NCBI GenBank assembly: GCA_963650905.1
Contig: CAVJNC010000001.1
Location: 1 to 47,382, forward strand
Length of the DNA: 47,382 nt
Direction of reading: 5' to 3'
DNA from: Subdoligranulum sp. APC924/74
GTDB taxonomy: Bacteria; Bacillota; Clostridia; Christensenellales; Borkfalkiaceae
Shown here piece by piece: positions 28,186 to 43,485 of the stretch (the first letter of the stretch is position 1; every line of letters starts with the position of its first letter). Below the pieces are notes generated by a model. The model ran no database searches and had not been told where the DNA came from. It saw only the letters and a program-made list of their open reading frames with translations. The translations under genes and the position numbers were made by a program.

Positions 28186-29984
28186 TCAAACGTCAATCGG
28201 TAATGATAAAAGATGTTCCGAAAAACGCGTTCGAAACGGCAAAAAGATTGTTCAAAGAACTGAAAAACCAGAAATTCAGGTTGACGATAGTCATAATTTT
28301 CGTTGTGATTTCAACCGTTCTGAACGTTTTCACGCCTTATTACAGCGCGCGGATTATAGATTTGCTTTTCGATACCGTAAAAAGGTACGCGGCGGGCGGA
28401 ATTCCGTTTTCGATACAATGGAATCCTCTCGGAAAAGGACTGACCGCAATGACGGCTCTGTATCTTTCGGTTGCGATTCTGAATTATTTTCAGTCGTTGC
28501 TCATGGCGAGCGTCGCCGAAAAATTGATACTTACGCTGCGCGAGCAAATAAGCGCAAAGTTACATAAATTGCCGCTCGAATTTTACGATAACAACAAACG
28601 CGGGGAAATATTGTCCAAGGTGACGAACGACCTCGACAAAATTTCCGAAACTTTGCAGACGGGGTTGCTTAAATTCGTCGTTTCCATAGGTACGGTCGTC
28701 GGTTCGCTCGCGTTTATGTTTTATTTCAGTCCGTCGCTGACCATGATTTTCCTCGGGTTTGCCGCCGTGAGTTTTGTCGCGACGAAAATCGTCGCGAACA
28801 AAAACCTTGCGTTTTCGGCGGACAGACAGGAGAAAATCGCCGTTCTCACGGGAGTCGCCGAAGAGCAGTATACGGGGAGAGACGCGGTAAAAGCCTATAA
28901 CAATGAGAAAAACAGCGAAAAAATATTGAACGACGCCATAGAAGACGTTGCGAAAGCGAGCAAAAAAACGGACTTTCTTACTCATTGCGTAGATCCCGTG
29001 ATAACGTTGTTGTTGCGATTCGCTCAAGCGTGTATTTTGCTTATCGCTTGCCTGCGGATGATGAAAGGAGATATGTCGTTCGGCGTTGCGCAGGCTTATT
29101 TCCGGTACACGGGGCTTTGTTCCGATCCGTTGACGGAAGCCTCGTTTATGATAAACTCGTTGCAATCGGCGTTCGCGTCGGCGGAAAGAACGTTCGGATT
29201 TCTCGACGAACGCGAAGAAGTTCCCGACGTTGCTTTGCCGTTCATTCTGCACAGGGCGAGAGGTCTGATTTCGTTCAAAAACGTGAGTTTCGGCTACACG
29301 CCCGATAAAATTCTTATGAGAAACGTAAGTTTCACGGCGGAAGAAGGGCAGAAAATCGCGATAGTCGGTCCTACCGGCGCGGGCAAAACGACGCTCGTCA
29401 ATCTGCTCATGCGATTTTACGAGGCGAACGACGGGAAAATAAAGATAGACGGCGTTCTCGTCACCGACCTTACGAGGAAGAACCTGAGAAGCAATTTCGG
29501 CATGGTTTTGCAGGATACCTGGCTTTTCGGCGGAACGATAGCCGAAAATATCGCCTACGGGAAAGAAAACGCCACGCGTGAGGAAATAGAACGGGCGGCA
29601 AAAACGGCGGGAGCGGATTACTTTATCAGAACCCTGCCGCAAGGTTACGACACCGTTATCGGAAGCGACGCGGCGAATATGTCCGCAGGTCAACGCCAAC
29701 TTCTGACCATTGCGAGAGTGTTTCTGCGCGATCCGCCCGTTCTCATTCTCGACGAAGCGACTTCGAGCGTGGACACGCGCACGGAAGCGGAAATCGGCAA
29801 GGCGATGAAATCGCTTATGAGGGGCAGAACTTCTTTCGTTATCGCGCACCGCCTTTCCACCGTCCGCGACGCGGATAACATATTGTTTATGGAAAACGGA
29901 AACATTATCGAGCAGGGCAACCACGAGGCGTTGCTTAAAAAAGGCGGCGCTTACGCAAGGCTTTACAACAGTCAGTTTTTATAA
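28182..29984 (+). CDS. Heterodimeric ABC exporter subunit (TMD-NBD), consensus-site half
   Basis: Start at ATG 28182 (ATGA overlap with the upstream stop). Walker A GPTGAGKTT, degenerate signature MSAGQRQL, Walker B VLILDEATSSVD. Confidence 0.9.
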   Translation: MIKRQSVMIKDVPKNAFETAKRLFKELKNQKFRLTIVIIFVVISTVLNVFTPYYSARIIDLLFDTVKRYAAGGIPFSIQWNPLGKGLTAMTALYLSVAILNYFQSLLMASVAEKLILTLREQISAKLHKLPLEFYDNNKRGEILSKVTNDLDKISETLQTGLLKFVVSIGTVVGSLAFMFYFSPSLTMIFLGFAAVSFVATKIVANKNLAFSADRQEKIAVLTGVAEEQYTGRDAVKAYNNEKNSEKILNDAIEDVAKASKKTDFLTHCVDPVITLLLRFAQACILLIACLRMMKGDMSFGVAQAYFRYTGLCSDPLTEASFMINSLQSAFASAERTFGFLDEREEVPDVALPFILHRARGLISFKNVSFGYTPDKILMRNVSFTAEEGQKIAIVGPTGAGKTTLVNLLMRFYEANDGKIKIDGVLVTDLTRKNLRSNFGMVLQDTWLFGGTIAENIAYGKENATREEIERAAKTAGADYFIRTLPQGYDTVIGSDAANMSAGQRQLLTIARVFLRDPPVLILDEATSSVDTRTEAEIGKAMKSLMRGRTSFVIAHRLSTVRDADNILFMENGNIIEQGNHEALLKKGGAYARLYNSQFL

Positions 29985-30161: not shown

Positions 30162-31499
30162 ATGAAAAACAAAGCGATTTTCAAAGATTTTTCGAAATAT
30201 GTGTCATTGAGCGTTCTGGGGCAGATCGCATTGTCCTGTTACACGCTCGCCGACACGTTTTTCGTGTCCGCGAAATTGGGCGCGAACGGACTTACCGCGC
30301 TCAACCTCGCGTTTCCGATATTCTGCGTCGTCAACGGCATAGGGCTTATGATAGGAATGGGCGGCGGAACAAAATATTCCATATATCGGAGCAGAGGAGA
30401 AAACGACGCGGCCGACCGCGTTTTTACGAACGCTTTATACGTCGTAGCCGCGTTTACCTGTCTTTTCGTTCCGGCGGGAATATTCTTTTCAAGGCAGATA
30501 GTGAGATTTCTCGGCGCGGACGAAACGGTGATCGAAATGACGAATACTTACGCGCATGTAATGCTTTTGTTCACCCCCGCTTTTCTGCTCAACAATCTCT
30601 TGCAGTGCTTTATCCGAAACGACGGCAAGCCGTCGCTTTCGATGGCGGCGATGATCACGGGCAGTTTATCCAACGTCTTGCTCGATTACGTATTCATTTT
30701 CCCGCTCGATATGGGGATATTCGGGGCGATTTTCGCAACGGGATTAGCCCCGATCATAAGCATTTGCGTTTTATCCCCCTGCATTATAAAACGAAAAAAC
30801 AAGTTCCGTTTCGTGAAATCGAAGCCCGACGGCGCGAGAGTGAAAGAAATTCTGGCGAGCGGATTTTCGCCGTTCCTCACGGAAGCGACGTCGGGCGTGG
30901 TTATGTTTTTGTTTAATTTTATTATCTTGCGGATAGCGGGCAATATCGGCGTTGCGGCTTTCGGCGTCATATCGGTTATATCTCTCGTGATTATCGCGGT
31001 ATACACGGGCTTATCCCAGGGCGCGCAACCGGTTATGAGCAGCAATCACGGAGCGGAAAATTCCGGAAACGTGAAAACCGTTCTGAAATACAGCCTGATA
31101 GCCATGCTCGTTTTGTCGGGCGTGATTTACGCCGCGATATTTTTCGGCGCGTCCGGTCTGACTTCGATATTCAACGGCGAGAAAAACCAAACGTTGCAAT
31201 CGCTTGCCGAAACGGGTTTAAAAATTTATTTTATCGCCTGTCCGTTTATAGGGTTCAATATCGTGCTTGCTACCTATTTTATCTCCACGGAAAAGCCGTT
31301 ATACGCGCAGATTATATCGCTTTCCCGCGGATTTATAGTCCTGATACCCGCGGCGTTTCTGTTGTCCGCTCTGTTCGGCATGACGGGCGTGTGGCGCGCT
31401 TATCCGACGTCGGAATGTATCGTCGCGACGACGGGATTAATTCTGTATATAACCGGCGAACGCCGTAAAAATCGAAAAAAGAGCAATAAATCGCAATAA
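30162..31499 (+). CDS. MATE-family multidrug efflux transporter
   Basis: 445 aa, 12 TM helices. AAAGGAG ribosome-binding site. Contains VLLDYVFIFPLDMGIFGA, which is also present in the MATE gene at 41737. Confidence 0.85.
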   Translation: MKNKAIFKDFSKYVSLSVLGQIALSCYTLADTFFVSAKLGANGLTALNLAFPIFCVVNGIGLMIGMGGGTKYSIYRSRGENDAADRVFTNALYVVAAFTCLFVPAGIFFSRQIVRFLGADETVIEMTNTYAHVMLLFTPAFLLNNLLQCFIRNDGKPSLSMAAMITGSLSNVLLDYVFIFPLDMGIFGAIFATGLAPIISICVLSPCIIKRKNKFRFVKSKPDGARVKEILASGFSPFLTEATSGVVMFLFNFIILRIAGNIGVAAFGVISVISLVIIAVYTGLSQGAQPVMSSNHGAENSGNVKTVLKYSLIAMLVLSGVIYAAIFFGASGLTSIFNGEKNQTLQSLAETGLKIYFIACPFIGFNIVLATYFISTEKPLYAQIISLSRGFIVLIPAAFLLSALFGMTGVWRAYPTSECIVATTGLILYITGERRKNRKKSNKSQ

Positions 31500-31504
31500 A
31501 AAAA

Positions 31505-31529
31505 CCTTGCGGAAGAGAGATCCGCAAGG
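31505..31529 (-). terminator. Intrinsic terminator ending the rex-hydA operon (hairpin shared with the convergent MATE gene)
   Basis: ccttgcgga-agagaga-tccgcaagg. On the minus strand it is followed by TTTTTTT (31498-31504). Confidence 0.75.
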
Positions 31530-31607
31530 TCATTCGATTGAAAACGCGATTTCGGAATTTACCCGTTAACCGCTTTTTGCCGGTATCCTTTTTGTCGCGA
31601 CGAAATA

Positions 31608-33050
31608 TTATTTCGCGGAATCGGAGGGCTTTATGAGTACGCTCAACGCGTCCGAAATAGTTTTTTCGAACGCCTCTCTGCCGTATTTGTCCACTTCCGC
31701 TTTGTTCTTTTCGCCGTGAGTCAAGCAACCCGCGCCGCCTATGCAACCGCCCACGCAAGCCATACCCTCGATGAAATTCGCCTGCAATTTGCCCGCGCGT
31801 TTCTGCAAAAGCGCGATTTTGCATTGTTCGATTCCGTCGCAGGAGCAGGGTTTAAGCACGAATTCGAGATTCTGCTCCCTGATTCCTTCCGCAACCGCGT
31901 CGGCAAGTCCGCCGCTGCGCGCGAAGATTCTGCCGAAGTAAGAAGCGTTGTCGAGAACGTCTTCGCCGAGCGCGGTTATGTCTATATCCTTGCTGTCGAA
32001 AAGAGCCTGAAGTTCTTCGAACGTCAATACCGCGTCGATATAAGGTCTCACGGATTCCTTCCGGAACTCCATTTTTTTGGCGGTGCAAGGGCCGATAAAC
32101 ACGGTTTTGCAGTCCTTTTCCGTTTCCTTGATATATTTCGCGATCGTCGCCATAGGCGAGAGGTTATGCGAAACGAACGGCTTTAAATCGGGGAAGTTCT
32201 TGTCGATATAATCCACGAAAGCGGGGCAGCAGGAACTCGTTAAAAATCCCTTTTCGGCAAGTTCTTTAGATTCCGCCTGCGCGACCATATCCGCGCCGAG
32301 AGCCGCCTCGATGACCGTGTGGAAACCGAGTTTGCGAAGCCCCGAGATGACCTGACCTAATTTCGCGTAAGTGAACTGACTGGAAATCGACGGAGCGACT
32401 ATCGCGTAAATTTTGTAATTCTGATTGCCGTGGCTGCCTTTGAGCATATCTATGACGTTGAGAATGAACGATTTATCCGTTATCGCGCCGAACGGGCAGG
32501 CGTAAACGCACGCGCCGCAGGATATGCACTTGTCGTTGTCGATGCAGGCTTGTTTTTCGTCGCCCATCTTTATGGCTTTGACTTTGCAAGCCGTTTCGCA
32601 CGGGCGTTTGTAGTTGAGAATCGCGCTGTAAGGGCATACCTTGGAGCATGCGCCGCATTCCTTGCATTTGGTTTTGTCGATATGCGCCACGTGATTTTCG
32701 TCGAAGGTTATCGCGCCGAATCTGCATGCGTCCTCGCAGCGGTGCGCAAGGCAGCCGCGGCAGGCGTTCGTGACTTCGTAGCCGCCCATAGGACATTCGT
32801 CGCAGGCGATATCGATAACTTCTATGACGTTCGGGTTCTGCTTGTCGCCGCCCATAGCGAGTTTAACGCGTTCCGCTAAAATCGCGCGTTCCTTATAAAC
32901 GCAGCAACGCATCGTCGGGATTTTCCCCGGGACGATTATTTTGGGGATATCGAGCAGATTATCCTGCAACGTGTCGTTCCACGCCTGCCGAGCCACTTCG
33001 CGCAGAACTTTATATTTTAAATGTTGAACTTTTGTATCGAATTTTCTCAT
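31608..33050 (-). CDS. hydA: [FeFe] hydrogenase catalytic subunit, group-B-like architecture
   Basis: Several N-terminal Cys clusters (CKECGACSKVCP, CISCGACVYACP). H-cluster motifs TSSCCPAF, GPCTAKKMEF and EGMACVGGCIGG. Confidence 0.8.
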   Translation of the reverse strand: MRKFDTKVQHLKYKVLREVARQAWNDTLQDNLLDIPKIIVPGKIPTMRCCVYKERAILAERVKLAMGGDKQNPNVIEVIDIACDECPMGGYEVTNACRGCLAHRCEDACRFGAITFDENHVAHIDKTKCKECGACSKVCPYSAILNYKRPCETACKVKAIKMGDEKQACIDNDKCISCGACVYACPFGAITDKSFILNVIDMLKGSHGNQNYKIYAIVAPSISSQFTYAKLGQVISGLRKLGFHTVIEAALGADMVAQAESKELAEKGFLTSSCCPAFVDYIDKNFPDLKPFVSHNLSPMATIAKYIKETEKDCKTVFIGPCTAKKMEFRKESVRPYIDAVLTFEELQALFDSKDIDITALGEDVLDNASYFGRIFARSGGLADAVAEGIREQNLEFVLKPCSCDGIEQCKIALLQKRAGKLQANFIEGMACVGGCIGGAGCLTHGEKNKAEVDKYGREAFEKTISDALSVLIKPSDSAK

Positions 33051-33061
33051 AATAATACCGA

Positions 33062-34234
33062 TTAAAAATAACTGACTTTGATTCGCTTACCCATTTTTTT
33101 AAGACAAGCGGATAATTCTTCCACAAGATTCATTTTGATGTTGAAGTTTATCGGCAAGTCGGGGTTCTGGTGCGCGGGGTTAACGGCTCTGCCGACGTAG
33201 AAATTGATGTCCGTGCCTTCTTCGAAGAGCATCCGGCATATTAAAGACGCGCCGTCGTGTCCGCAACTCCATTTTTCATATAGTTTGTTTTCGCCGAGAA
33301 CGTCGTGGGCGTATTCCACCACGCGGTTCATCGTGATAACGCCTTCCGTAACAAGGTCCACGCCTTCGATTTTCGCTATCGGGGGAATATCCGAATTTGC
33401 GAAATTAACGCTCACTTCAACCTTTTTCCCGAGATATTTTGCGGCGATCGAAGAGGTCGTTCCGCCGCAGACGATATGCTTGCCTTCTTTGGAGAAGAAC
33501 AAAGCCATCATGCGGTTCGCGTCGTCCCTGTCTCTCGGCGGGCCGAACAGAATGTTCATAGGCTCGCGTTTTCTGATTTTCACGACGCACGCCGTGGCGT
33601 CGTCGCCGGGGCGATGAGCGTAAAGTTCGTCCACCTCGTCCAGAAGAATGGTAGCCATCGTTTTCGCCGCGTATTCCCCGGCGACGACGACTTTCATGAA
33701 TTCTATGATTTCTTCCCTTTTCCAGCCGAAATTATAGGCAAGCCCGATGCCCGCGTGCGGGCAACCGTCGCTCATCGTAACGAACACGTCGCCTTCCTGC
33801 AACTTTATCATCGAATGATAAATCTTTTTGCCGTCTATGTTCATCTCCGTTTTCGGGTAGAGATAATTCTCGCCGTCGCGGATAAGAATGGTAAGCGGGT
33901 TGTCGTACTGAATGAGTTCCATTTCGCGGTTTTCCACGAGGTGCATGATGGTGAACGTGGAATAAGCGACGCCCCTCACCGAGCATATCGGCAAGGTCTT
34001 TGCGATCGTTTCCACGCAGTCCGAAAGGGTAAGCCCTTCCGCCATCATCGTGGAAATGATCTTGCTCGTGAGCGTGGAAAGTATGCTTGCCTTAACGCCG
34101 CTGCCGAGTCCGTCCGCAAGGACGATCACGGTGGAATCGTCGTCGCGCTCCACGACGTCGATATGATCGCCGCAGAGTTGTTCCCCGAAATGGTTTATGC
34201 TTTTGTAACCTATGTCGGCGCAAAGATTATTCAT
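33062..34234 (-). CDS. SpoIIE/PP2C-family serine phosphatase with a C-terminal domain of unknown function
   Basis: GEQLCGDHIDV...VLADGLGSGVKAS...DGCPHAG are PPM-type metal-binding Asp/Gly motifs. A further ~170-aa C-terminal region is unassigned. 8-nt overlap with hydS. Confidence 0.75.
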   Translation of the reverse strand: MNNLCADIGYKSINHFGEQLCGDHIDVVERDDDSTVIVLADGLGSGVKASILSTLTSKIISTMMAEGLTLSDCVETIAKTLPICSVRGVAYSTFTIMHLVENREMELIQYDNPLTILIRDGENYLYPKTEMNIDGKKIYHSMIKLQEGDVFVTMSDGCPHAGIGLAYNFGWKREEIIEFMKVVVAGEYAAKTMATILLDEVDELYAHRPGDDATACVVKIRKREPMNILFGPPRDRDDANRMMALFFSKEGKHIVCGGTTSSIAAKYLGKKVEVSVNFANSDIPPIAKIEGVDLVTEGVITMNRVVEYAHDVLGENKLYEKWSCGHDGASLICRMLFEEGTDINFYVGRAVNPAHQNPDLPINFNIKMNLVEELSACLKKMGKRIKVSYF

Positions 34235-35903
34235 CGGAAATGCTCTCCTTCAGTTTGGTAAGAGCGATTTTCGTTTCCGCCGCGGTTTCGCCGAGCAGCG
34301 AGGCGATTTCCTGAACGATGCGCATTTGCTTATCCACCACGTTATCGGCGGTTTCAACCGTCTGATTACGCAGTTTTTCGCGCTTTTCGCGCTCGTTTTC
34401 CTGTTCGGTGATATCCCTCATTATGCACAGAAGCATATGATAGGTGGTGTCGTAAATAATCGTCTGTTCGACGAATCTGTTGTATTCCGCAAGGAAAGTT
34501 TTGCGGTTGCGGACGCTCTTCTTGCTCTCGAGAACTTCGAGGAAGGGCTTCGGATCGAGAATGCGGACGACCTGATCGCCGAGCACGTCCGAAGCGTATC
34601 TTATGTTGAGAATTTTCCGCGCCGCGGGGTTGATCTGCTGAACTTCGAGCGCGTCGTTGACCACTATGAGCGCGTTCGGCGTGTTCGAGACGATGCAATC
34701 GGAGAAACTTTCGGCTTTATCCTTAAGATAGGGCAGACACATCGAAATTTCCGCCTTGCCGTGAATGATCGCTATCGCTTTTTCGCGGCAGGTATCGTAT
34801 CCGCAGGAGCCGCAGTTGAGTTCGTCCTCCGGTCTGTTTTTGCCCATCTTTTTAAGAACTTCCTGAATTTCGCTTTCGGACGGAGTAACGTTTCTGCGTT
34901 CGATAGGCTCGAATCTCTTTTTTAAGTCGAGCGAATCGGGCTGAGGGGTTTCGAAGTCCTTCGTTCCGGCGTACTTCGCGACCGACTGATAATCGATTAC
35001 GGGCGAGCGGTGATATTTTTCCATGACCGGCCCGCCGATGCAACTGCCCGCGCAGGCGGACATTTCGATGAAGCACTTATGAACGTTGCCCCGCTCGATT
35101 TCTTTGAGCGCGGCTATGCAGTTTTCGATGCCGTCCACCGCGAAATAAGTGTAATCGGGAGTTCTGTTTTTCATCGTCTTCAGAATTCCTCCCGCGGTGG
35201 GGAAGAAACGGGCGCGACTGTTATCCGTGTCGTCCATATCGGACGGAATCTCGACATGCTCGTCGCTAAGCCATTTCGTGAGTTCTTCAAACGTTAAAAC
35301 GGCGTCCACGATGCCTTCGTAATGCTGAGCCTCGTCCTTTTTCGCCACGCAGGGCCCGATAAAGACGGTTTTCGCTTCGGGATGTTTCTTCTTTATCTCG
35401 GAGCAGTGCGCCTGCATCGGCGACATCACGTCCGCCAGATCGGGCAGAAGAGACGGGAAATATTTCTGAATAAGAAGATTTACCGAATGGCAACAGGACG
35501 AAATAACTATATCCCGCGTTTCTTCGGCAAGCATTTTCTCGTATTCGTTTTTGACCACGGTCGCCCCGACAGCGGTTTCTTCCGCGTCGGCAAAGCCGAG
35601 TTTTTTAAGCGCGGATCTGATTCCGTTTATGCCTGTTCCGTGATAGTTTGCGATAAAGGACGGGGCTACGCTGGCGTAAACCTGCGCGCCCGACTGAATC
35701 ATTACTTTAACCTTTTCGGTTTCTTCCACGATCTGTTTCGCGTTCTGCGGACAAACGACGAAGCACTGTCCGCAAAGAATGCACTCGTTACCGATGATAT
35801 GCGCCTGATTGCCCGAAAATCTTATCGATTTCACGGGGCAGTGGCGTATGCATTTATAACAGTTTTTGCAGTTGGATTTTTTGAGCGTCAAACATTCCGA
35901 CAC
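34227..35903 (-). CDS. hydS: Sensory-type [FeFe] hydrogenase (HydS-like): 2x[4Fe-4S] ferredoxin, H-domain, Cx2Cx4Cx16C, PAS
   Basis: CKNCYKCIRHCP and CILCGQCFVVCP. H-domain motifs SSCCHSV, GPCVAKKDEA and EMSACAGSCIGGP. CGSCGYDTC-x16-C. PAS-like segment IVSNTPNALIVVNDALEVQQINPAARKIL. Start assigned to GTG 35903, 8 nt after GAGGAG. The Arg-rich extension to 36038 overlaps the ferredoxin gene and is rejected. Confidence 0.8.
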   Translation of the reverse strand: MSECLTLKKSNCKNCYKCIRHCPVKSIRFSGNQAHIIGNECILCGQCFVVCPQNAKQIVEETEKVKVMIQSGAQVYASVAPSFIANYHGTGINGIRSALKKLGFADAEETAVGATVVKNEYEKMLAEETRDIVISSCCHSVNLLIQKYFPSLLPDLADVMSPMQAHCSEIKKKHPEAKTVFIGPCVAKKDEAQHYEGIVDAVLTFEELTKWLSDEHVEIPSDMDDTDNSRARFFPTAGGILKTMKNRTPDYTYFAVDGIENCIAALKEIERGNVHKCFIEMSACAGSCIGGPVMEKYHRSPVIDYQSVAKYAGTKDFETPQPDSLDLKKRFEPIERRNVTPSESEIQEVLKKMGKNRPEDELNCGSCGYDTCREKAIAIIHGKAEISMCLPYLKDKAESFSDCIVSNTPNALIVVNDALEVQQINPAARKILNIRYASDVLGDQVVRILDPKPFLEVLESKKSVRNRKTFLAEYNRFVEQTIIYDTTYHMLLCIMRDITEQENEREKREKLRNQTVETADNVVDKQMRIVQEIASLLGETAAETKIALTKLKESISDE

Positions 35904-35905
35904 GG

Positions 35906-36178
35906 TTAATTCTCCTCGGCTTTCGCCTTTGCGACGGCGGGCATAACCGATTTTTCCCAGAATTCGCCGAATCCTTCGGGCGTTATGCCGACGTAAACCT
36001 CGCCGTCCACGGTTATCGTCACGCCGACGCGGTTGCACTTGCCGGAGCAGAACGCCCCGACAAGCGCTATTTCGTCTTCCAGACGATTATTCGCTATTTT
36101 TTCCTGTAACAATTCAACGATCCTCGGCGCGCCTTTCAGGTGACAAGAACTGCCGACGCAAACTTCGACGATTATCAT
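35906..36178 (-). CDS. Thioredoxin-like [2Fe-2S] ferredoxin (NuoE/HndA-like fold), 90 aa
   Basis: Cx4C...Cx3C pattern: VCVGSSCHLKG ... FCSGKC. Confidence 0.7.
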   Translation of the reverse strand: MIIVEVCVGSSCHLKGAPRIVELLQEKIANNRLEDEIALVGAFCSGKCNRVGVTITVDGEVYVGITPEGFGEFWEKSVMPAVAKAKAEEN

Positions 36179-36417
36179 TGCAATTTCGCTTTTATTTCTT
36201 TATCGAAAAATTCCTTTACGGTTTCGGGCGTGACGGAATAGAAATTATCGTCTACCGTAACGCAGACGCCGAGTTGGCATTTGCCCATGCAGAACGTTCC
36301 GCCGAGTTCGACTTTGTCGCCGAGCCCCGCTTCGTTGATATAATACTGAAGACCTTCGACTACTTTACGCGATCCTTTGATATGGCAGGAAGAGCCGATA
36401 CATACGGTAACTTTCAT
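36175..36417 (-). CDS. Thioredoxin-like [2Fe-2S] ferredoxin, 80 aa (paralogue of 35906-36178)
   Basis: VCIGSSCHIKG ... FCMGKC. 4-nt overlap with the next gene. Confidence 0.7.
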   Translation of the reverse strand: MKVTVCIGSSCHIKGSRKVVEGLQYYINEAGLGDKVELGGTFCMGKCQLGVCVTVDDNFYSVTPETVKEFFDKEIKAKLQ

Positions 36418-36432
36418 TATTTATTCTCCTTT

Positions 36433-37182
36433 TTATTCATAATCGACGACGTTTACCCACGAGAGAAGGAATTCGCGTTCTTTCTCGTTGCCTTTAACGA
36501 TCTGCGAAGCCGCTACGATGGGCATCCATTTCTGAATGTATTGCTTTTCGGTGTGGCTCTTCGCGCAGAAGAGGTCGAGATATTTCTTCGCCCCGTCTAT
36601 ATCGCCGTTGAGCCAGAACAGAAGATAAGTTCTCGCCACGTCCGCCGAGGCGTTGCCCTGAGTCGCGTGCGACCAGTCGAGAATATAAGGCGTTCCGTCT
36701 TCGGCGATGATGATGTTGGAGGGGTTGAAATCTCCGTGGCAAAGTTTGTTGTGCTTCGGCATCGCGTCGAGGCGGGTGTGAAGTTCGTAACGGGTAGTCG
36801 CGTCGAGATCGGTGTTTAAGATCTTGCGGTTCATCTTGTCCTTCAACTTGGTGAGAAGAGGGCAGGTTTTGGACTGAACTTCCATCTGAAGATCGACGAA
36901 CATATTGAGATATTCGTCTTTCTTGTCGGGGTTCTCGCTCATGATCTGAGCGAGAGTTTTACCTTTGATATAATCGGTCGTTATCGTCCATTTGCCGTCG
37001 ATGACGGAGACCTCGCGGATTTTGGGAACGTTAAGCCCCGTTTCCTCCACGAGCGCGTGATTGAGCGCTTCGTTTAAAACCTGCGCTTTCGAATAAGTAT
37101 TGTCGAATACTTTAAGACACAAATCGCCGTCACGATAAACCGTTTTGTTGTTTCTTACGGCAATTATTCTGTCAAGTTTCAT
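36433..37182 (-). CDS. APH/choline-kinase-fold protein kinase-like protein
   Basis: Catalytic-loop and DxD-type motifs: LCHGDFNPSNIIIAEDGTPYILDWSHA. 249 aa. Confidence 0.7.
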   Translation of the reverse strand: MKLDRIIAVRNNKTVYRDGDLCLKVFDNTYSKAQVLNEALNHALVEETGLNVPKIREVSVIDGKWTITTDYIKGKTLAQIMSENPDKKDEYLNMFVDLQMEVQSKTCPLLTKLKDKMNRKILNTDLDATTRYELHTRLDAMPKHNKLCHGDFNPSNIIIAEDGTPYILDWSHATQGNASADVARTYLLFWLNGDIDGAKKYLDLFCAKSHTEKQYIQKWMPIVAASQIVKGNEKEREFLLSWVNVVDYE

Positions 37183-37194
37183 CTTTTTTCCTCC

Positions 37195-39909
37195 TTATGC
37201 TTTTTTAATTCCGCTTTTTGCGCGGCGGTACGCTTGTTTGAAGTTATGAGTGTCGTCCGCAGGCGCGGCTTCCGCTTTCGGCATTTCGGGTTCGGTGAAA
37301 TGTTTGTTTCCGTAATAAGCGTTGAGATACATCTGCTTGATTTCGCTCATGAGCGGGTATCTCGGGTTTGCGCCGGTGCATTGATCGTCGAACGCCTGTT
37401 CCGTCATCGCGTCGAGGCGGTTGAGGAAGTCGGCTTCGTCGGGGACGTAATCTCTGATTGTGGGTTTGATTCCGACTCTCGCTTTGAGGTCGTTAACGGC
37501 TTTGATGAGGTTTTCGAGTTTTTCGGTATCCGTGTTGCCGCCGAGACCTAAACAGTCGGCAACTTCGGCGTATCTCGCCAAGGTGTGCGGGTGATCGTAC
37601 TGCGAGAACGTACCCATCTTTACGGGCGCTTCCGCTGCGTTGAAACGAAGAACTTCTTCGATCATCAGAGCGTTTGCCACGCCGTGAGCGATGTGGTGGA
37701 ACGCGCCGAGTTTGTGAGCCATCGAGTGGCAGACGCCTAAGAACGCGTTAGCGAAAGCCATGCCTGCCATGGTTGCGGCGTTTGCCATTTTTTCACGGGC
37801 TTCGACGTCTGCCTGACCGTTGTCGTAAGCGCGCGGGAGATATTTGAATATCGTCTGCAACGCCTGTTTCGCAAGACCGTCCGTATAATCGGTAGCCATA
37901 ACCGAAGCGTAGGCTTCCAACGCGTGGGAAACGGCGTCGATACCGGAAGCGGCGGTAAGTCCTCTCGGCGCGCTCATATGGAAATCGGTGTCGATTATAG
38001 CCATGTTGGGCAGCAACTGATAGTCCGCGAGAGGATATTTGATTCCGCTGTCCTGATCGGTGATGACGGCGAACGGAGTGACTTCCGAACCGGTACCGGC
38101 AGAGGTCGGGATAGCGATGAAGTATGCTTTTTCTCCCATCTTCGGGAAGGTGTAAACTCTCTTACGGATATCGATGAATCTCATCGCCATATCCATGAAG
38201 TCTGCTTCGGGATGTTCGTAAAGAACCCACATTATCTTGCCGGCGTCCATTGCCGAGCCGCCGCCGAGAGCGATGATGACGTCCGGTTTGAACGAACGCA
38301 TGAGTTCCGCACCCGCTTTGGCGCACGCGAGAGTGGGATCGGGAGCGACGTCGAAGAACGTCTCGTGAACGATGCCCATCTGATCGAGTTTGTCCTCGAT
38401 GGGTTTGGTGTAGCCGTTATTGTAAAGGAACGAGTCCGTTACGATGAACGCGCGTTTCTTGTTCATGACGTGCGTCAACTCGTCGAGAGCGACGGGCAGA
38501 CAACCTTTTTTGATATAAACCTTTTCAGGCGCGCGGAACCAAAGCATGTTTTCTCTCCTTTCTGCAACAGTCTTAATGTTAATCAGGTGTTTGACGCCCA
38601 CGTTTTCCGAAACGCTGTTGCCGCCCCACGAGCCGCAGCCGAGCGTTAAAGACGGAGCGAGTTTGAAGTTGTAAAGATCTCCGATTCCGCCGTGCGAAGA
38701 GGGAGTGTTCACGAGGATACGGCAGGTCTTCATACGCGAAGCGAATTCGTCGAGTTTGGCCTTTTCCGTCATTACGTTGAGGTAAATGGACGAAGTGTGT
38801 CCGTATCCGCCGTCCGCGATAAGGTGTTCCGCTTTGGAGAACGCGTCCTGAATGTCCTCGGCTTTATACATCGCGAGAACGGGGGAGAGTTTTTCGTGAG
38901 CGAATTCTTCCGAAAGTTCCACGCTTTCCACTTCGCCGATAAGAATCTTCGTTCCTTCGGGAACGGTAACTCCTGCGAGCGCGGCGATCGTAGCGGCTTT
39001 CTGACCGACGATTTTCGCGTTGAGCGCGCCGTTTATGATGATCGTTTTGCGGACTTTTTCGGTTTCTTCGGGGTTAAGGAAGTAGCAACCTCTGTTCGCG
39101 AATTCGATTTTCACGGCGTCGTAAACGTTCTTATGAACGATGACCGACTGCTCGGAAGCGCAGATCATGCCGTTATCGAAAGTTTTGGAGTGAATGATGG
39201 AGTTGACGGCAAGCACGATATCCGCGGAATCGTCGATGATCGCGGGGGTGTTGCCCGCGCCTACGCCGAGAGCCGGTTTGCCGGAAGAATAAGCGGCTTT
39301 GACCATTCCGGGGCCGCCCGTAGCGAGGATAATGTCCGCTTCTTTCATGAGGAGGTTGGTCATTTCGAGAGAAGGAATATCAACCCAGTCGATGATTCCT
39401 TCGGGCGCGCCGGCTTTAACGGCCGCGTCGAGAACGACTTTAGCCGCGGCGATAGTCGATTTTTTCGCTCTCGGGTGCGGACTGATGATGATCGCGTTTC
39501 TCGTTTTGAGGGCGATCATCGTTTTGAAAATCGCGGTGGACGTGGGGTTCGTCGTCGGGATAACCGCGGCGATAACGCCTATCGGCTCGGCGATTTTCTT
39601 TATGCCGTAAGCCTTGTCCTCTTCGATAACGCCGCAGGTTTTCGTGTTCTTGTAAGCGTTATAGATATATTCGGCGGCATAGTTGTTTTTGATGACTTTG
39701 TCCTCAACCACGCCCATGCCTGTTTCTTCCACCGCCATTTTCGCGAGGGGAATACGCGCCTGATTGGCGGCGATGGCGGCGGCTTTGAAAATTTTGTCCA
39801 CCTGTTCTTGCGTGTAGGTCGCGAATTTACGCTGAGCGTCCTTTACTCTTGCGATAGTCGCTTCGAGCGTCTCGACGCTGTCGACTATCTGTCGTTCTTT
39901 GTTTTCCAT
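37195..39909 (-). CDS. adhE: Bifunctional acetaldehyde-CoA/alcohol dehydrogenase
   Basis: N-terminal ALDH domain (catalytic-Cys region FDNGMICASEQS) plus C-terminal Fe-ADH domain (GGGSAMDAGK, HSMAHKLG). 904 aa with a ~35-aa Ala/Lys-rich C-terminal tail. Confidence 0.95.
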   Translation of the reverse strand: MENKERQIVDSVETLEATIARVKDAQRKFATYTQEQVDKIFKAAAIAANQARIPLAKMAVEETGMGVVEDKVIKNNYAAEYIYNAYKNTKTCGVIEEDKAYGIKKIAEPIGVIAAVIPTTNPTSTAIFKTMIALKTRNAIIISPHPRAKKSTIAAAKVVLDAAVKAGAPEGIIDWVDIPSLEMTNLLMKEADIILATGGPGMVKAAYSSGKPALGVGAGNTPAIIDDSADIVLAVNSIIHSKTFDNGMICASEQSVIVHKNVYDAVKIEFANRGCYFLNPEETEKVRKTIIINGALNAKIVGQKAATIAALAGVTVPEGTKILIGEVESVELSEEFAHEKLSPVLAMYKAEDIQDAFSKAEHLIADGGYGHTSSIYLNVMTEKAKLDEFASRMKTCRILVNTPSSHGGIGDLYNFKLAPSLTLGCGSWGGNSVSENVGVKHLINIKTVAERRENMLWFRAPEKVYIKKGCLPVALDELTHVMNKKRAFIVTDSFLYNNGYTKPIEDKLDQMGIVHETFFDVAPDPTLACAKAGAELMRSFKPDVIIALGGGSAMDAGKIMWVLYEHPEADFMDMAMRFIDIRKRVYTFPKMGEKAYFIAIPTSAGTGSEVTPFAVITDQDSGIKYPLADYQLLPNMAIIDTDFHMSAPRGLTAASGIDAVSHALEAYASVMATDYTDGLAKQALQTIFKYLPRAYDNGQADVEAREKMANAATMAGMAFANAFLGVCHSMAHKLGAFHHIAHGVANALMIEEVLRFNAAEAPVKMGTFSQYDHPHTLARYAEVADCLGLGGNTDTEKLENLIKAVNDLKARVGIKPTIRDYVPDEADFLNRLDAMTEQAFDDQCTGANPRYPLMSEIKQMYLNAYYGNKHFTEPEMPKAEAAPADDTHNFKQAYRRAKSGIKKA

Positions 39910-39930
39910 AGAAACCTCCTGTGTTTCGTA

Positions 39931-40530
39931 CTATGATTTTTGTCTTATTTTGTTTTGCAGGTGAGCCAGAGAGAGCGCGAGATCCTCGTATTGAACCGTA
40001 ACGCCTTCGGGAACCTGCAGTTGAGAGTGAGAAAAACACCACACGGCTCTGATTCCGCTTCTTATCATCTCGTCCGTCGCTTCCTGCGCCGCGGCGGCGG
40101 GAACGGTAAGAATGCCGAGTTCGATCTGATGCAACAGGCAGTACGATTTCATTTCGCTTATCGGAAGGACGTTGTCTCCGAACTTGTTTTCGTCGTTGTC
40201 GAACGCCTTCGCGACTTTCAGTCCGTACTCCGAAAAACCCGCGTAGCCCAGAAGAGCCATGCCGAGTTTCCCCGCGCCGACGATGATCGCTTCCTTCTGA
40301 AACTTATCCGGAAGGACGCTTTCCATGCTTCGGATCAGGTCGGTTACCTTGTAGCCGATTTTCGGTTTTCCTTTGCCGCAGACGGAAGCGAGATCTTTCC
40401 GCACCTGAACCTCGCCGAGCGAGAGTTGCTTCGCGAGCGCGGTCGCGGAAATTTCCGTGGCCGAATCGGGCAACGCCTTCAGACGTTTCAGATACATCGG
40501 TATTCTGCTTAAAGTCGCTTTGGATATCAT
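39931..40530 (-). CDS. rex: Redox-sensing transcriptional repressor Rex
   Basis: Winged helix ISATALAKQLSLGEVQVRKDLASV plus Rossmann motif VGAGKLGMAL. Start placed at ATG 40530 (GAGGAG 9 nt upstream). The ORF-track start at 40551 has no ribosome-binding site. Confidence 0.9.
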   Translation of the reverse strand: MISKATLSRIPMYLKRLKALPDSATEISATALAKQLSLGEVQVRKDLASVCGKGKPKIGYKVTDLIRSMESVLPDKFQKEAIIVGAGKLGMALLGYAGFSEYGLKVAKAFDNDENKFGDNVLPISEMKSYCLLHQIELGILTVPAAAAQEATDEMIRSGIRAVWCFSHSQLQVPEGVTVQYEDLALSLAHLQNKIRQKS

Positions 40531-40556
40531 CGCGTTTTTCTCCTCTTCCATCGTAA

Positions 40557-40585
40557 AGTATAACGCAACGCGCGGAAAATGTGAA
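40557..40585 (-). promoter_or_regulatory. Promoter of the rex-adhE-hyd operon
   Basis: Minus strand: TTCACA, 17 nt, TATACT. The -35 box coincides with a single Rex-type TTCACA half-site. Confidence 0.5.
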
Positions 40586-40644
40586 TTGCTTTATTTTTAT
40601 ATCGGTATGGTATTTATCGATATAACACGGAAAGAAATAAAAAA

Positions 40645-40670
40645 CCGCAGAAAATCAAGGGTTTTTGCGG
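40645..40670 (-). terminator. Intrinsic terminator of lysR (40680-41609)
   Basis: ccgcaaaaa/tttctgcgg stem (one mismatch) followed by TTTTTTATTT on the minus strand. Confidence 0.65.
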
Positions 40671-40679
40671 CTTTAAAAG

Positions 40680-41609
40680 TTACGATGCGCCGAACAATTC
40701 GCGTTTTACGCGGCACAGTTCGGTAACGAAAGCCTTATCGAGATCGGTAAGGGCGTAGTCTTTTTTATAAATAAGAAGGTCTTTATACGTTTTTTTGTTC
40801 TCGGCGCAGGTTTTTTCCGTCAGCCCGTAAGCGAGAAGCGTGGACTTAGGAACGGCGGACACCCACATAAAGGTGCGCGGATCCTTGGAGAGCAGTTCGA
40901 ACTGGCTCGCCCGTTCGAAAACGAAAATACGCCGTTCGGTTTGCGGCAGTTCCTCTTTTTTCACTTCCGAGAGCGATAAAAAGGGAACGTAAGGATCGGC
41001 GTGCGCGATCTCGGTTTTGTCGGGAAGGTCGGAAAATTTCACGTCGTCGACGGCCGCGAGCGGAGAATCTTTGCTCACGAGCAGGCGATAACGGAACTCC
41101 GTGACGAGTTCGTAAGCAAGCCCTTTCGCGTCGAGCGATTCCTTATAATACGAGTCGTACTGTTCGGCGTAACGGATGATGCCGAGGCGATAGTCCGATT
41201 CGAGAATGTTTTTTATGGCGCGGAGCGAATTCGTTTCCTTATAGAAAAACTCGATTTTTTCTTTGTCCGGCAACTTGCCGACGAAAGACGAAAACGCGTC
41301 GCTTATATAACTGGCGCGGGGAACGGAAACGGAGAACTTTTTGTTTTCCGGAAGGTCGCCGCGGAACATGTTTTCCACGGTGTCCACCTGCTTGAGTATG
41401 CTTTTCGCGTATTTCAGAAATTCCTCGCCGCGCGGGGTTACCTTTATCCCGCGGGAAGAACGTTCGAAGAGATTCACTCCGAGCGACGTTTCCAGTTCCT
41501 TTATGCAGCGGCTGAGGTTGGATTGATCCATATAAAGCGATTCGGCGGCTTTGTTGATCGATCCGCAGGAAGCCACTTCCACCGCGTATTTCAAATACAT
41601 TAAATTCAT
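40680..41609 (-). CDS. LysR-family transcriptional regulator
   Basis: HTH: LKYAVEVASCGSINKAAESLYMDQSNLSRCIKELETSLGVNLFER. Confidence 0.85.
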   Translation of the reverse strand: MNLMYLKYAVEVASCGSINKAAESLYMDQSNLSRCIKELETSLGVNLFERSSRGIKVTPRGEEFLKYAKSILKQVDTVENMFRGDLPENKKFSVSVPRASYISDAFSSFVGKLPDKEKIEFFYKETNSLRAIKNILESDYRLGIIRYAEQYDSYYKESLDAKGLAYELVTEFRYRLLVSKDSPLAAVDDVKFSDLPDKTEIAHADPYVPFLSLSEVKKEELPQTERRIFVFERASQFELLSKDPRTFMWVSAVPKSTLLAYGLTEKTCAENKKTYKDLLIYKKDYALTDLDKAFVTELCRVKRELFGAS

Positions 41610-41736: not shown

Positions 41737-43143
41737 CTATTTTTCGTCCGGATCGGGAATCCGGTTCGTTTTGTTTAACGCCTGCTTTAAAAATATCGCC
41801 GAAACGACGCACGTGAGAATTTCGGCAATCGGGAACGTCCACCACACGAGATTAAGCACGTTGTCGGAGAGCGTGAACAGATAAGCCGTCGGGAAAACGA
41901 AAACGACGAGCCTTAAAAAAGCGGTCGCGAGCGGGCTGACCGCGTTGCCGAGAGCCTGCAAAACGCCCTGAACGGCAACGTTGAAACCCATAAACACGAA
42001 ACTTAAAGCGGCTATTCTCGTCGCTTTGGCGCAAACGTCCGTTAGCGCGGCGGAACTGCCGCCGGAAAGGGCGAAGAGTTCCGAAAGAGGAACGGCGATT
42101 ATCTCGAACAAAACGGTTATGCAGAGCGTGACGAGAAGAGTGTCGAGAATTCCGTATTTTATGCAGTCTTCGGAACGTTCTTTGCTTTTCATTCCGTAAT
42201 TGAAAGAGAGAACGGTGATTATCGTGTTCGACAACCCGAACGCCGAAAACAAAGCGATTTGTTGTATTTTATAATAAATTCCGAACGAACCGACAAGAAT
42301 CGTCGGATCTGCGTTCGCCGAGCCTAAAATCGCGTTCATTCCCGCCATCATAACCGATAGCAGAGCCTGCATAATCGCGGCGGAAACGCCTATTTTGTAA
42401 ATCGAAGCGATTATTCCGCCGTCCGGACGGATATATTTCGGGTTGCCGCCGATTTCTTTGTTTACGGAATAATGCAGAGCCATCGCGATGAAAAGCGAAA
42501 CGAACTGCCCGATAATCGTCGCCCACGCCGCCCCGGCGACGCCCATATCGAGCGGGAAAATAAACACGTAGTCCAAAACGACGTTCGTCAGCGCGCCCGA
42601 GATCTGCGCGATCGTGGAGAGCATCGTTTTGCCCGTCGCCTGTAAAAATCTCTCGTAAACGGCGAAACCTATCGACCCGAGCGAAAAACATACGCATATG
42701 CGAAGATAAGAAGTTCCCATTTCCTTAACCGCGTCGTTTTCGGTGAAAAGCCCGATAAACCATTCCGAGAGAAACAGCCCGAAAAGCAGAAATACGGCAT
42801 AAATTACGAGGCAGAGAAAAATTCCGTTCCCCGCGACGGCGTTCGCCTTTTCCTTGTCGCCTTCGCCGAGGCTTTTGGAGAGCATCGCGTTCAGTCCCAC
42901 GCCGGTGCCTACGCTCACTGCGATGATCATTATCTGTACGGGGAAGGCAATCGTGAGAGCCTCGTTCGCGAGCGCGCCCGAGCCTTGCATGTTGGCTACG
43001 AAAACGCTGTCCACAACGTTATAAAGAGCCTGCAGAACCATGGATATTATCATCGGCAAGCCCAGTTTCCACATCAACTTTTTCACGGGCTCTGCAGCCA
43101 TTTTGTTTTGCTTTGTTTGTTCCGTTTGTTGCATTTGTTGCAT
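41737..43143 (-). CDS. MATE-family multidrug efflux transporter
   Basis: Start at ATG 43143 (MQQMQQTEQ...). 12 TM helices. PMIISMVLQALYNVVDSVFVANM is typical of MatE. The 77-codon upstream extension covers the structured leader and is rejected. Confidence 0.85.
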   Translation of the reverse strand: MQQMQQTEQTKQNKMAAEPVKKLMWKLGLPMIISMVLQALYNVVDSVFVANMQGSGALANEALTIAFPVQIMIIAVSVGTGVGLNAMLSKSLGEGDKEKANAVAGNGIFLCLVIYAVFLLFGLFLSEWFIGLFTENDAVKEMGTSYLRICVCFSLGSIGFAVYERFLQATGKTMLSTIAQISGALTNVVLDYVFIFPLDMGVAGAAWATIIGQFVSLFIAMALHYSVNKEIGGNPKYIRPDGGIIASIYKIGVSAAIMQALLSVMMAGMNAILGSANADPTILVGSFGIYYKIQQIALFSAFGLSNTIITVLSFNYGMKSKERSEDCIKYGILDTLLVTLCITVLFEIIAVPLSELFALSGGSSAALTDVCAKATRIAALSFVFMGFNVAVQGVLQALGNAVSPLATAFLRLVVFVFPTAYLFTLSDNVLNLVWWTFPIAEILTCVVSAIFLKQALNKTNRIPDPDEK

Positions 43144-43182
43144 TTTAATACCGTCCTTTTTGGCGTTCGGAATTCTCTCGGC

Positions 43183-43226
43183 TATCCGCGGGCGGTTGCG
43201 TTTGCAAACGCAACCGCCCGCGGATA
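43183..43226. promoter_or_regulatory. Perfect 44-nt palindrome in the MATE 5' leader
   Basis: tatccgcgggcggttgcgtt-tgca-aacgcaaccgcccgcggata forms a 20-bp GC-rich stem. It lies 40 nt upstream of ATG 43143 and has no U-run on either strand. Confidence 0.7.
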
Positions 43227-43229
43227 AGC

Positions 43230-43268
43230 AAAAAAAATGCGTAAACCCGAAGAAAATCGGATTTACGC
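43230..43268 (-). terminator. Leader intrinsic terminator (attenuator) upstream of the MATE gene
   Basis: Minus strand: GCGTAAATCCG-attttctt-CGGGTTTACGC (11 bp including one G-U pair), then A TTTTTTTT. Confidence 0.7.
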
Positions 43269-43321
43269 AAAGGAATATCAAAGAAAATTCCGCTGTTTTT
43301 TGCCACTCATTTTCGGTAATC

Positions 43322-43349
43322 ATTATAGCGATTTTCCGAAAAAAGTCAA
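43322..43349 (-). promoter_or_regulatory. Promoter of the MATE gene 41737-43143
   Basis: Minus strand: TTGACT, 16 nt, TATAAT. Implied leader of about 170 nt. Confidence 0.6.
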
Positions 43350-43415
43350 GTTTTTTTCCGCCGTTTTCCGCCATGCGGAGAAAAAATTTCCCCGAAGAAT
43401 GTTTTTCCTTGTGGC

Positions 43416-43485
43416 ATTAAACGGTCGCCGCGCCGTCGCTTTCGGGCGATATTAAACGGTCGTCGCGTCGTCGCTTTCGGGCGGC
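43416..43485. repeat. 2 x 35-nt tandem duplication spanning the stop codon of the MATE gene 43452-44867
   Basis: attaaacggtcg[c/t]cgcg[c/t]cgtcgctttcgggcg occurs at 43416 and 43451. The second copy encodes ...ESDDATTV*. Confidence 0.9.

Follow-up and report, generated by a model that had tools for sequence, protein, structure and literature searches.

An eight-gene rex-adhE-kinase-hydS-PP2C-hydA cluster from an uncultured gut clostridium: an orthologue of the Ruminococcus albus 7 cluster with a putative role in H2 sensing

Background

How might a fermentative gut bacterium convert the level of H2 around it into a choice between forming ethanol and forming H2? The question is raised by a locus of Subdoligranulum sp. 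APC924/74, an uncultured species of gut Clostridia. The stretch of DNA analysed, henceforth the window, comprises 47,382 nucleotides (nt) of contig CAVJNC010000001.1 (assembly GCA_963650905.1), and all coordinates are positions in the window. Its minus strand carries, at 31608-40551, eight consecutive open reading frames (ORFs) in the order rex, adhE, kinase, fdx1, fdx2, hydS, PP2C and hydA (Table 1), among which HydS is a putative sensory [FeFe] hydrogenase and PP2C a protein phosphatase.

We consider it likely that HydS and PP2C together form an H2-responsive sensor which, with the kinase, sets a phosphorylation state that regulates how strongly AdhE and the ferredoxin-dependent hydrogenase are expressed. 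That H2 would be translated into a phosphorylation state and then, together with Rex, into a partition of flux is a published hypothesis, and we infer every step of this signal chain. The cluster itself is already known from Ruminococcus albus 7, as a transcription unit and from RNA-seq, and its core is represented by the hfs genes of Thermoanaerobacterium and Clostridium thermocellum; "dimeric PAS sensory hydrogenases" have had a place in catalogues from 2010-2012 onwards. The window adds one more orthologue, from an uncultured species, and no new kind of system.

An earlier note on this DNA had proposed an operon of eight same-strand genes spaced at -8 to +21 nt, similar to the hydS/hydA2/adhE/kinase/phosphatase/rex unit of R. 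albus. The ORF coordinates bear out the spacing (from rex to hydA, the gaps are +21, +12, +15, -4, +2, -8 and +11 nt), and profile searches of the ORF translations against Pfam and NCBIfam agree with all of its family assignments; the products all have their catalytic and cofactor motifs intact. The likeness to R. albus extends to an identical gene order, with 50-81% identity between the products; an H-cluster domain, on which the note had made its reading depend, is present in the product of 34227-35903; and a survey of gene neighbourhoods finds these families co-localised in dozens of genomes.

Orthology with the Ruminococcus albus 7 cluster

A tblastn search of plasmids with HydS led to the R. 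albus 7 megaplasmid pRUMAL01 (NC_014824.1, 138999-147916; locus L083), where genes for LysR, Rex, AdhE, a 250-amino-acid phosphotransferase, two ferredoxins, HydS, a SpoIIE-type phosphatase and HydA2 occur in the same order as in the window. Identity to the window proteins is 50% for Rex, 75% for AdhE, 73% for the kinase, 81% and 60% for the ferredoxins, 70% for HydS, 76% for PP2C, 75% for HydA/HydA2 and 54% for LysR. The overlap of hydS with the phosphatase gene and a dual box between lysR and rex are also shared. Judged by this order and identity, the window locus is an orthologue of the R. albus 7 rex-adhE-kinase-fdx-fdx-hydS-PP2C-hydA2 cluster. The two differ in that Rex is the least conserved of the eight members, and in their setting: the R. 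albus copy resides on a 420-kb megaplasmid typed as mobilizable (MOBP), in a different host, whereas the window is an ordinary-looking 47-kb contig with transporter and housekeeping-type genes. In R. albus 7, hydA2, hydS, aad, the Ser/Thr kinase, the phosphatase and rex reportedly form one transcription unit, as Zheng et al. are said to have described in 2014 in J Bacteriol.

In co-culture with an H2 consumer, the "putative eight-gene cluster" of R. albus was down 111-fold, and nothing else in the transcriptome changed more (Greening et al. 2019, PMC6776011). This co-response supports a single co-regulated unit in the R. albus orthologue. Expression of the cluster is strong at high H2, and the response follows the H2 level in pure culture too (PMC6776011). 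Greening et al. proposed direct sensing of H2 by the group C hydrogenase and its phosphatase subunit (PMC6776011), and Zheng et al. 2014, as their proposal is summarised in PMC5707799, that HydS senses H2 and relays the signal via its PAS domain to the adjacent Ser/Thr kinase.

Conservation of the hydS-PP2C core in related loci

The gene order was compared across related loci using a HydS profile built from 34 diverse sequences, which retrieved 80 loci from species-representative genomes, mostly metagenome-assembled genomes (MAGs) of gut and rumen Clostridia. Their HydS proteins are 59-86% identical to that of the window, and the remaining window proteins were mapped onto them by tblastn. Synteny was counted over 81 loci in total; genes upstream of hydS were counted out of 60 loci.

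The hydS gene is followed by an overlapping PP2C gene in 73 of 73 loci with sequence available, and a group B hydA comes next in 63 of them. At least one 2Fe-2S ferredoxin gene stands directly before hydS in 55 of 60 loci. The other members are less regular: the kinase is found in 31 of the 60 loci, adhE in 22, rex in 19 and a same-strand LysR gene in front in 24. The full rex-adhE-kinase-fdx(-fdx)-hydS-PP2C-hydA order occurs in 13 loci, 10 of which have LysR ahead, and the nearest named relative, the MAG "Acidiphilium sp. CAG:727", has the identical eight genes in identical order, plus LysR. Since ten loci contain the kinase without adhE, as opposed to one with adhE and no kinase, the kinase belongs to the sensor module and not to adhE.

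The block is also found in C. thermocellum (L087, CP013828 996-12251), where rex, adhE, an APH kinase, a 2Fe-2S ferredoxin, HydS and PP2C are encoded together, with 48-80% identity to the window. Unlike the window, it has one ferredoxin gene only and is followed by a bifurcating NuoE/NuoF/HydA hydrogenase instead of a group B enzyme. On the evidence of this exchange, the sensor block is portable and the catalytic hydrogenase downstream of it interchangeable.

Two further loci may be recorded here. In one (L065), a NuoE-like gene comes after PP2C. In Acetoanaerobium noterae (L084, 6998-11957), a distant HydS homologue (37% identity, 568 amino acids) has no adjacent PP2C and adjoins genes for a RelA/SpoT-domain and an HD-domain protein, a neighbourhood suggestive of another kind of output in that lineage, perhaps one that uses a nucleotide second messenger.

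HydS, the putative sensory hydrogenase

The HydS protein is composed of two N-terminal [4Fe-4S] sites, the H-domain, a four-cysteine iron-sulfur (FeS) domain, a PAS domain and a conserved C-terminal helix, and matches Fe_hyd_lg_C (1.2e-49) and the FeS family PF04060 (7e-11). The H-cluster ligands C138, C185, C284 and C288 are invariant among the 34 diverse homologues, and C364, C367, C372 and C389 of the C-terminal FeS site are likewise invariant, as is every other cysteine that binds a cluster. The motifs around the active site read SSCCH, GPC and EMSAC..SC. The position of M353 in CpI is occupied by Gly (GPC) in 30 of the 34 homologues, and that of M497 by Ser (EMSAC) in 17 and by Asn in 12; the C299 equivalent is Cys, Ser or Ala across the family, with Cys (SSCCH) in the window protein. 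According to the criteria in PMC8163306, the sensory [FeFe] signature includes M353 to Gly and M497 to Ser, as in TmHydS. By these residues, the window HydS carries the group C "sensory" active-site signature, and a low-activity, H2-sensing role is putative. The invariance of the H-cluster ligands in the 34 proteins argues for a functional H2-binding site.

The same domain plan, with an N-terminal [4Fe-4S] region, an H-domain with Gly and Ser in place of the methionines, a four-Cys cluster and PAS, is described in the literature for the spectroscopically characterised HydS of Thermotoga maritima (group C, M2f). The likeness is drawn from the published description, and the window HydS has Cys at the family-variable C299-equivalent position.

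Besides the cysteines, the best-conserved stretch of the 34 HydS proteins comprises the last ~40 residues (KQMRxVQEIASLLGETxAETK), in which I533, A534, L537, G538 and E539 are invariant. This tail (residues ~515-558; window 34227-34360, minus strand) likely forms, as a terminal helix, the contact to the co-translated PP2C.

The hydS reading frame begins at GTG 35903, located 2 nt past the fdx2 stop codon and behind GAGGAG, and codes for 558 amino acids; this start is preferred because of the Shine-Dalgarno sequence in front of it and the 558-residue length common to homologues. The longest mechanical ORF, from GTG 36038, was rejected, as it would overlap fdx2 by 133 nt.

The small ferredoxins encoded ahead of HydS are both thioredoxin-like. 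Fdx1 matches 2Fe-2S_thioredx (PF01257) with 33.6 bits (cut-off 24.8), and its cysteines C6, C11, C43 and C47 are conserved in 76 orthologues. Fdx2 matches the same family with 27.7 bits (cut-off 24.8) and is found in 41 of 60 related loci.

These ferredoxins lend themselves to another reading, in which HydS would sense the cellular redox state (the ferredoxin/NADH pool) and not H2, its FeS clusters being fed by the two ferredoxins and its H-cluster being vestigial or merely equilibrating with H2. The regular position of such genes in front of hydS (55 of 60 loci), the three accessory [4Fe-4S] sites of HydS and the frequent co-occurrence of the NADH sensor Rex (19 of 60) are in keeping with it. 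Earlier comparative work, too, considered that the PAS hydrogenases might be "involved in redox sensing" (PMC3561251). We nevertheless judge a pure redox sensor unlikely: the H-cluster ligands and motifs are invariant in the 34 diverse HydS proteins, and the response in R. albus follows H2 in both pure culture and co-culture (PMC6776011).

The PP2C phosphatase and its C-terminal domain

The product of the gene that overlaps hydS matches SpoIIE (PF07228) with 57.7 bits (cut-off 25), and its phosphatase domain spans residues 1-225. The metal-binding motifs GD23, D41G, SD156G and D211D are invariant, with D23, D41, D156, D211 and D212 retained in 150 sequences. A single-sequence AlphaFold model was unusable, with a predicted local distance difference test (pLDDT) of 35; the model used was instead computed from the 150-sequence alignment and has a pLDDT of 88 and a predicted template modelling score (pTM) of 0.87. 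In a Foldseek comparison it matched SpoIIE (5mqh) at 1e-14, and its closest structural relatives are PPM phosphatases of the SpoIIE, RsbX and RsbU type; the whole model matched only PP2C folds, among the matches listed.

The remaining residues, 226-390 (165 amino acids; window 33062-33559, minus strand), are predicted to form an alpha/beta domain. Its identity does not fall below 62% in any of the loci examined, and it has the invariant motifs GGTT, TEG and NPAHQ, together with one of KVSYF type. Profile searches with this domain gave no significant match in Pfam or among the sequences of the PDB. A SIS (sugar isomerase) identity was considered and rejected (3trj, E = 0.11; probability 2.7% in an hhalign comparison with E. 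coli GmhA).

The relatives of the phosphatase domain include the SpoIIE/SpoIIAA/SpoIIAB and RsbU/RsbV/RsbW partner-switching modules, in which, as in the window, a dedicated kinase is co-encoded. The window differs in lacking a STAS substrate, a GHKL kinase and a nearby sigma factor, and in possessing an APH/RIO-fold kinase and the unique 165-residue PP2C domain. Accordingly to the profile search, neither STAS nor HATPase_c (RsbW/SpoIIAB-type) has a match among the eight products or the neighbouring genes.

Comparison with hfs genes and other H2-responsive systems

The C. thermocellum block corresponds to the region of the hfs genes that holds hfsB (Clo1313_1795, which is HydS), and the hfs genes share the core of a PAS-containing HydS (HfsB), a PP2C (HfsC) and a catalytic hydrogenase (HfsD). 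In Thermoanaerobacterium saccharolyticum, as opposed to the window, adhE and rex lie at other sites of the genome, and HfsA is said to resemble no known protein (PMC11837493). In both Thermoanaerobacterium and C. thermocellum, deletion of hfsB affects how strongly adhE is expressed and how much ethanol is obtained (PMC5707799, PMC11837493); more specifically, it raises the ethanol yield in C. thermocellum and adhE expression in T. saccharolyticum (PMC5707799).

The catalytic member of the window cluster, HydA, belongs to group B1 according to TIGR04105 (576 bits, cut-off 450); with its L1-L3 motifs intact (TSSCCP, GPCTAKK and EGMACVGGC), it is presumably a catalytic, ferredoxin-dependent [FeFe] hydrogenase. 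HydS, PP2C, ferredoxin and HydA could therefore be pictured as one catalytic ferredoxin-dependent complex (the "Hfs hydrogenase"), with the kinase and phosphatase acting post-translationally, for example on HydA or AdhE. The tight coupling of the genes, with overlaps of -4 and -8 nt, would suit such a complex, as would the loss of hydrogenase activity and H2 production upon deletion of hfsABCD in Thermoanaerobacterium (PMC5707799, PMC11837493) and the observation that shifts in adhE transcript left part of the changes in enzyme activity unexplained (PMC5707799). Deletion of hfsB alone, however, led to higher hydrogenase activity, and hfsD was by itself enough to restore the phenotype (PMC5707799, PMC11837493), so that HydS is dispensable for catalysis. 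Moreover, 10 of the 73 loci have no adjacent group B hydA; taken with the bifurcating hydrogenase that follows the block in C. thermocellum, this is more in line with a portable regulator than with a fixed subunit. The single-complex reading is, in our estimation, distinctly unlikely.

A similar logic, in which a low-activity hydrogenase senses H2 and controls transcription of the catalytic hydrogenase through a PAS-containing kinase pathway, is attributed to HoxBC-HoxJ-HoxA of Cupriavidus necator in the accounts cited in PMC5707799 and PMC6776011. The proteins are unrelated, since those of C. necator are of the [NiFe] type, and a histidine kinase and response regulator take the place of the Ser/Thr kinase and PP2C.

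The kinase, AdhE and Rex

The 249-residue kinase matches APH (PF01636) with 48.8 bits (cut-off 23.2), the only family above its cut-off; its matches to RIO1, Bud32 and choline kinase are weak, and the profile search assigned it no Hanks-type Pkinase-family domain. It is the "Ser/Thr kinase" of the published cluster, and by family it is APH/RIO-like. K24, H149-G-D151 and D168-W are invariant in 45 orthologues, and since the catalytic Lys, HGD and D(W) are thus conserved, the protein is probably an active phosphotransferase, with a putative role as a protein kinase.

AdhE matches NF010378 with 1392 bits (cut-off 951) and is 75% identical to the R. albus and 80% to the C. thermocellum protein. 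At its C-terminus it has a basic tail of ~35 amino acids (..FKQAYRRAKSG.KKA; residues ~870-904, window 37195-37300, minus strand), which is also present in R. albus and close relatives, whereas C. thermocellum AdhE is without it.

Rex, composed of a winged-helix (Put_DNA-bind_N) and a Rossmann NADH (CoA_binding) domain, matches NF003994 with 218.9 bits (cut-off 130). The true start of the gene is most likely the second ATG, at 40530, because GAGGAG (40545-40540) lies 9 nt upstream of it, the first ATG (40551) is only 5 nt past the -10 hexamer, and the CAG:727 gene model starts with the corresponding MISKA.

The promoter region and its candidate operator

Both the promoter-like site and the strong terminator that the earlier note had placed at the two ends of the operon are present. 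The promoter hexamers are TTCACA at -35 (40585-40580) and TATACT at -10 (40562-40557), separated by a 17-nt spacer. The number of promoter-like matches in the region does not exceed chance (7, against 8.2 expected); in the CAG:727 relative, whose HydS is 88% identical, the two hexamers of this site occupy conserved positions.

The note's account of the neighbourhood holds for the eight genes and overlooked the conserved LysR gene directly upstream on the same strand, together with an operator-like box. The LysR protein matches HTH_1 (PF00126, 2.9e-19) and, weakly, LysR_substrate (0.046). A LysR gene is placed likewise in R. albus 7, where the protein is 54% identical, and in 24 of the 60 related loci. 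On the 3' side of lysR lies a hairpin with a T-run (40635-40670, CCGCA...TGCGG), which the consensus scan did not report because of a bulge. Next to it, at 40623-40600, is the dual box ATATCGATA-N6-ATACCGATA, with the consensus ATAYCGATA-N6-ATAYCGATA, which reads just as well as the inverted repeat TATATCG-N13-CGATATA. The dual box occurs once in the window, with 0 mismatches, where 0.12 matches are expected at up to 3 mismatches; many other loci, R. albus 7 and CAG:727 among them, have it at -75 to -140. When up to 2 mismatches are allowed, 13 of the 26 loci that have lysR upstream contain the inverted repeat, compared with 4 of the 35 that do not; of 2000 random sequences of 250 nt, 15 contain it. 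The dual box is a candidate operator for LysR, or for the operon's Rex with altered specificity.

As to Rex, the family identity given in the note stands (NF003994), and its suggestion that Rex acts here finds no canonical box at the window promoter: neither TTGTGAA-N4-TTCACAA nor TTGTTAA-N4-TTAACAA matches near the operon at up to 3 mismatches. In several relatives, mainly those with operons starting with adhE, a near-perfect canonical Rex box (TGTTAAAATATTAACA) overlaps the -10 (loci L020, L022, L023, L026, L031, L032, L033, L042 and L008). The operons of the window, CAG:727, L003 and R. albus 7, which have rex as their first gene, are without the box; because relatives carry good boxes over the -10, its absence is specific to these four. 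The Rex part of the model is therefore without operator support at the window promoter.

The canonical Rex boxes over the -10 of many relatives would agree with a simpler view, namely that of a plain fermentation operon regulated by Rex or LysR, in which the APH-fold kinase is a small-molecule phosphotransferase placed there fortuitously. The kinase does weakly match choline-kinase and thiamine-kinase type (APH-like) families, and some sources label it "Bud32" or simply "phosphotransferase". Such a fortuitous adjacency is highly improbable to us, as the kinase keeps its place beside fdx-hydS-PP2C in 10 loci without adhE, its sequence is strongly conserved (73% identity to the R. albus protein and likewise to that of C. 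thermocellum), and the pairing of hydS and PP2C is invariant (73 of 73). The redox-sensor, single-complex and plain-operon explanations are all rendered less likely by the dispensability of HydS for catalysis, the portability of the sensor block and the linkage of the kinase to the sensor.

A proposed signal chain and the points that weigh against it

The reading that we prefer, an H2-responsive HydS-PP2C sensor acting with the kinase, could operate as follows. (i) HydS would bind or oxidise H2 at a low-turnover H-cluster, with the small 2Fe-2S ferredoxins as its redox partners. (ii) The signal would run through the C-terminal FeS/PAS domain and the terminal helix of HydS to the co-translated PP2C. 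(iii) PP2C and the APH-fold kinase would jointly set the phosphorylation state of a target, which (iv) would govern transcription of the operon itself. Because the operon includes the ferredoxin-dependent HydA and AdhE, it is proposed that at high H2 electrons go to ethanol and ferredoxin-linked H2. (v) The DNA-binding output would probably be the adjacent LysR and/or the operon's Rex, at the dual box upstream of the -35.

Several points weigh against this chain. The supporting expression and genetic data all come from orthologues in other hosts. The PAS match of the window HydS is weak (20.4 bits, under the Pfam cut-off of 22.6), and in the C. thermocellum orthologue the precomputed annotation gives a faint one. 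APH-fold enzymes phosphorylate small molecules too; no classical PP2C substrate, STAS or other, is encoded nearby; and the canonical Rex operator is lacking, as described above. The C-terminal cluster of TamHydS, an enzyme of group D, is unresponsive to H2 (PMC13104023). The sign of the regulation is unclear, as high H2 induces the R. albus cluster, whereas loss of hfsB raises adhE expression in T. saccharolyticum.

A more specific version of the output can be formulated, in which the HydS pathway ends not at Rex but at the upstream LysR, bound to the dual ATAYCGATA box. How active LysR is would depend on its Ser/Thr phosphorylation, brought about by the APH-fold kinase together with the PP2C bound to HydS, and the 165-residue C-terminal domain of PP2C would serve as a phospho-acceptor or a metabolite-binding switch. 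We regard this version as doubtful; were it true, it would represent a new kind of self-contained module of sensor, phosphatase and substrate.

Features of the locus and neighbouring genes

The features of the locus are collected in Table 1. The terminator is positioned between the end of the operon and a convergent MatE gene, and three genes for MatE-family efflux transporters flank the operon and the LysR gene, at 30162-31499 (plus strand), 41737-43374 (minus) and 43452-44867 (minus). Two ATP-binding cassette (ABC) exporter genes are located farther downstream, at 26452-29984. Rfam and tRNA scans of the whole window gave no match.

Table 1. Features of the hydS locus, with positions in the window
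Feature	Position	Strand	Basis or remark
LysR-type regulator gene	40680-41609	-	Outside the eight-gene set; HTH_1 PF00126, 2.9e-19
Bulged hairpin and T-run	40635-40670	-	Probable terminator between lysR and the operon; read from the sequence
Operator-like dual box	40598-40624	-	12 nt 5' of the -35
Sigma-70-type promoter-like site	40557-40585	-	Consensus scan, 10/12 positions
rex, redox-sensing repressor	39931-40551 (probable start ATG 40530)	-	NF003994
adhE, bifunctional acetaldehyde-CoA/alcohol dehydrogenase	37195-39909	-	NF010378
APH/RIO/Bud32-fold phosphotransferase, 249 amino acids	36433-37182	-	PF01636
fdx1, thioredoxin-like [2Fe-2S] ferredoxin, 80 amino acids	36175-36417	-	PF01257
fdx2, thioredoxin-like [2Fe-2S] ferredoxin, 90 amino acids; 4-nt overlap with fdx1	35906-36178	-	PF01257
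hydS, group C (M2f) putative sensory [FeFe] hydrogenase, GTG start	34227-35903	-	Fe_hyd_lg_C and motifs
PP2C/SpoIIE-type Ser/Thr phosphatase; 8-nt overlap with hydS	33062-34234	-	PF07228
hydA, group B monomeric [FeFe] hydrogenase, HydA2 orthologue	31608-33050	-	TIGR04105
Intrinsic terminator	31503-31531	-	11-bp stem with 6 G-C pairs, then TTTTTATT

Significance

To the known cluster, the present analysis adds the invariant HydS-PP2C core, the C-terminal domain of PP2C, the HydS tail, the dual box with its LysR gene, and the lack of a Rex box at the window promoter. The invariant unit consists of HydS and a PP2C with a unique C-terminal domain, usually accompanied by a small 2Fe-2S ferredoxin. 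For the DNA-binding output, which is the missing piece, the dual box and the LysR gene offer themselves as candidates. Sensing of H2 by fermenters of the gut and rumen would steer their metabolism between acetate plus H2 on the one hand and ethanol on the other, and is thereby of relevance to interspecies hydrogen transfer, to rumen methane and to the engineering of ethanol producers.

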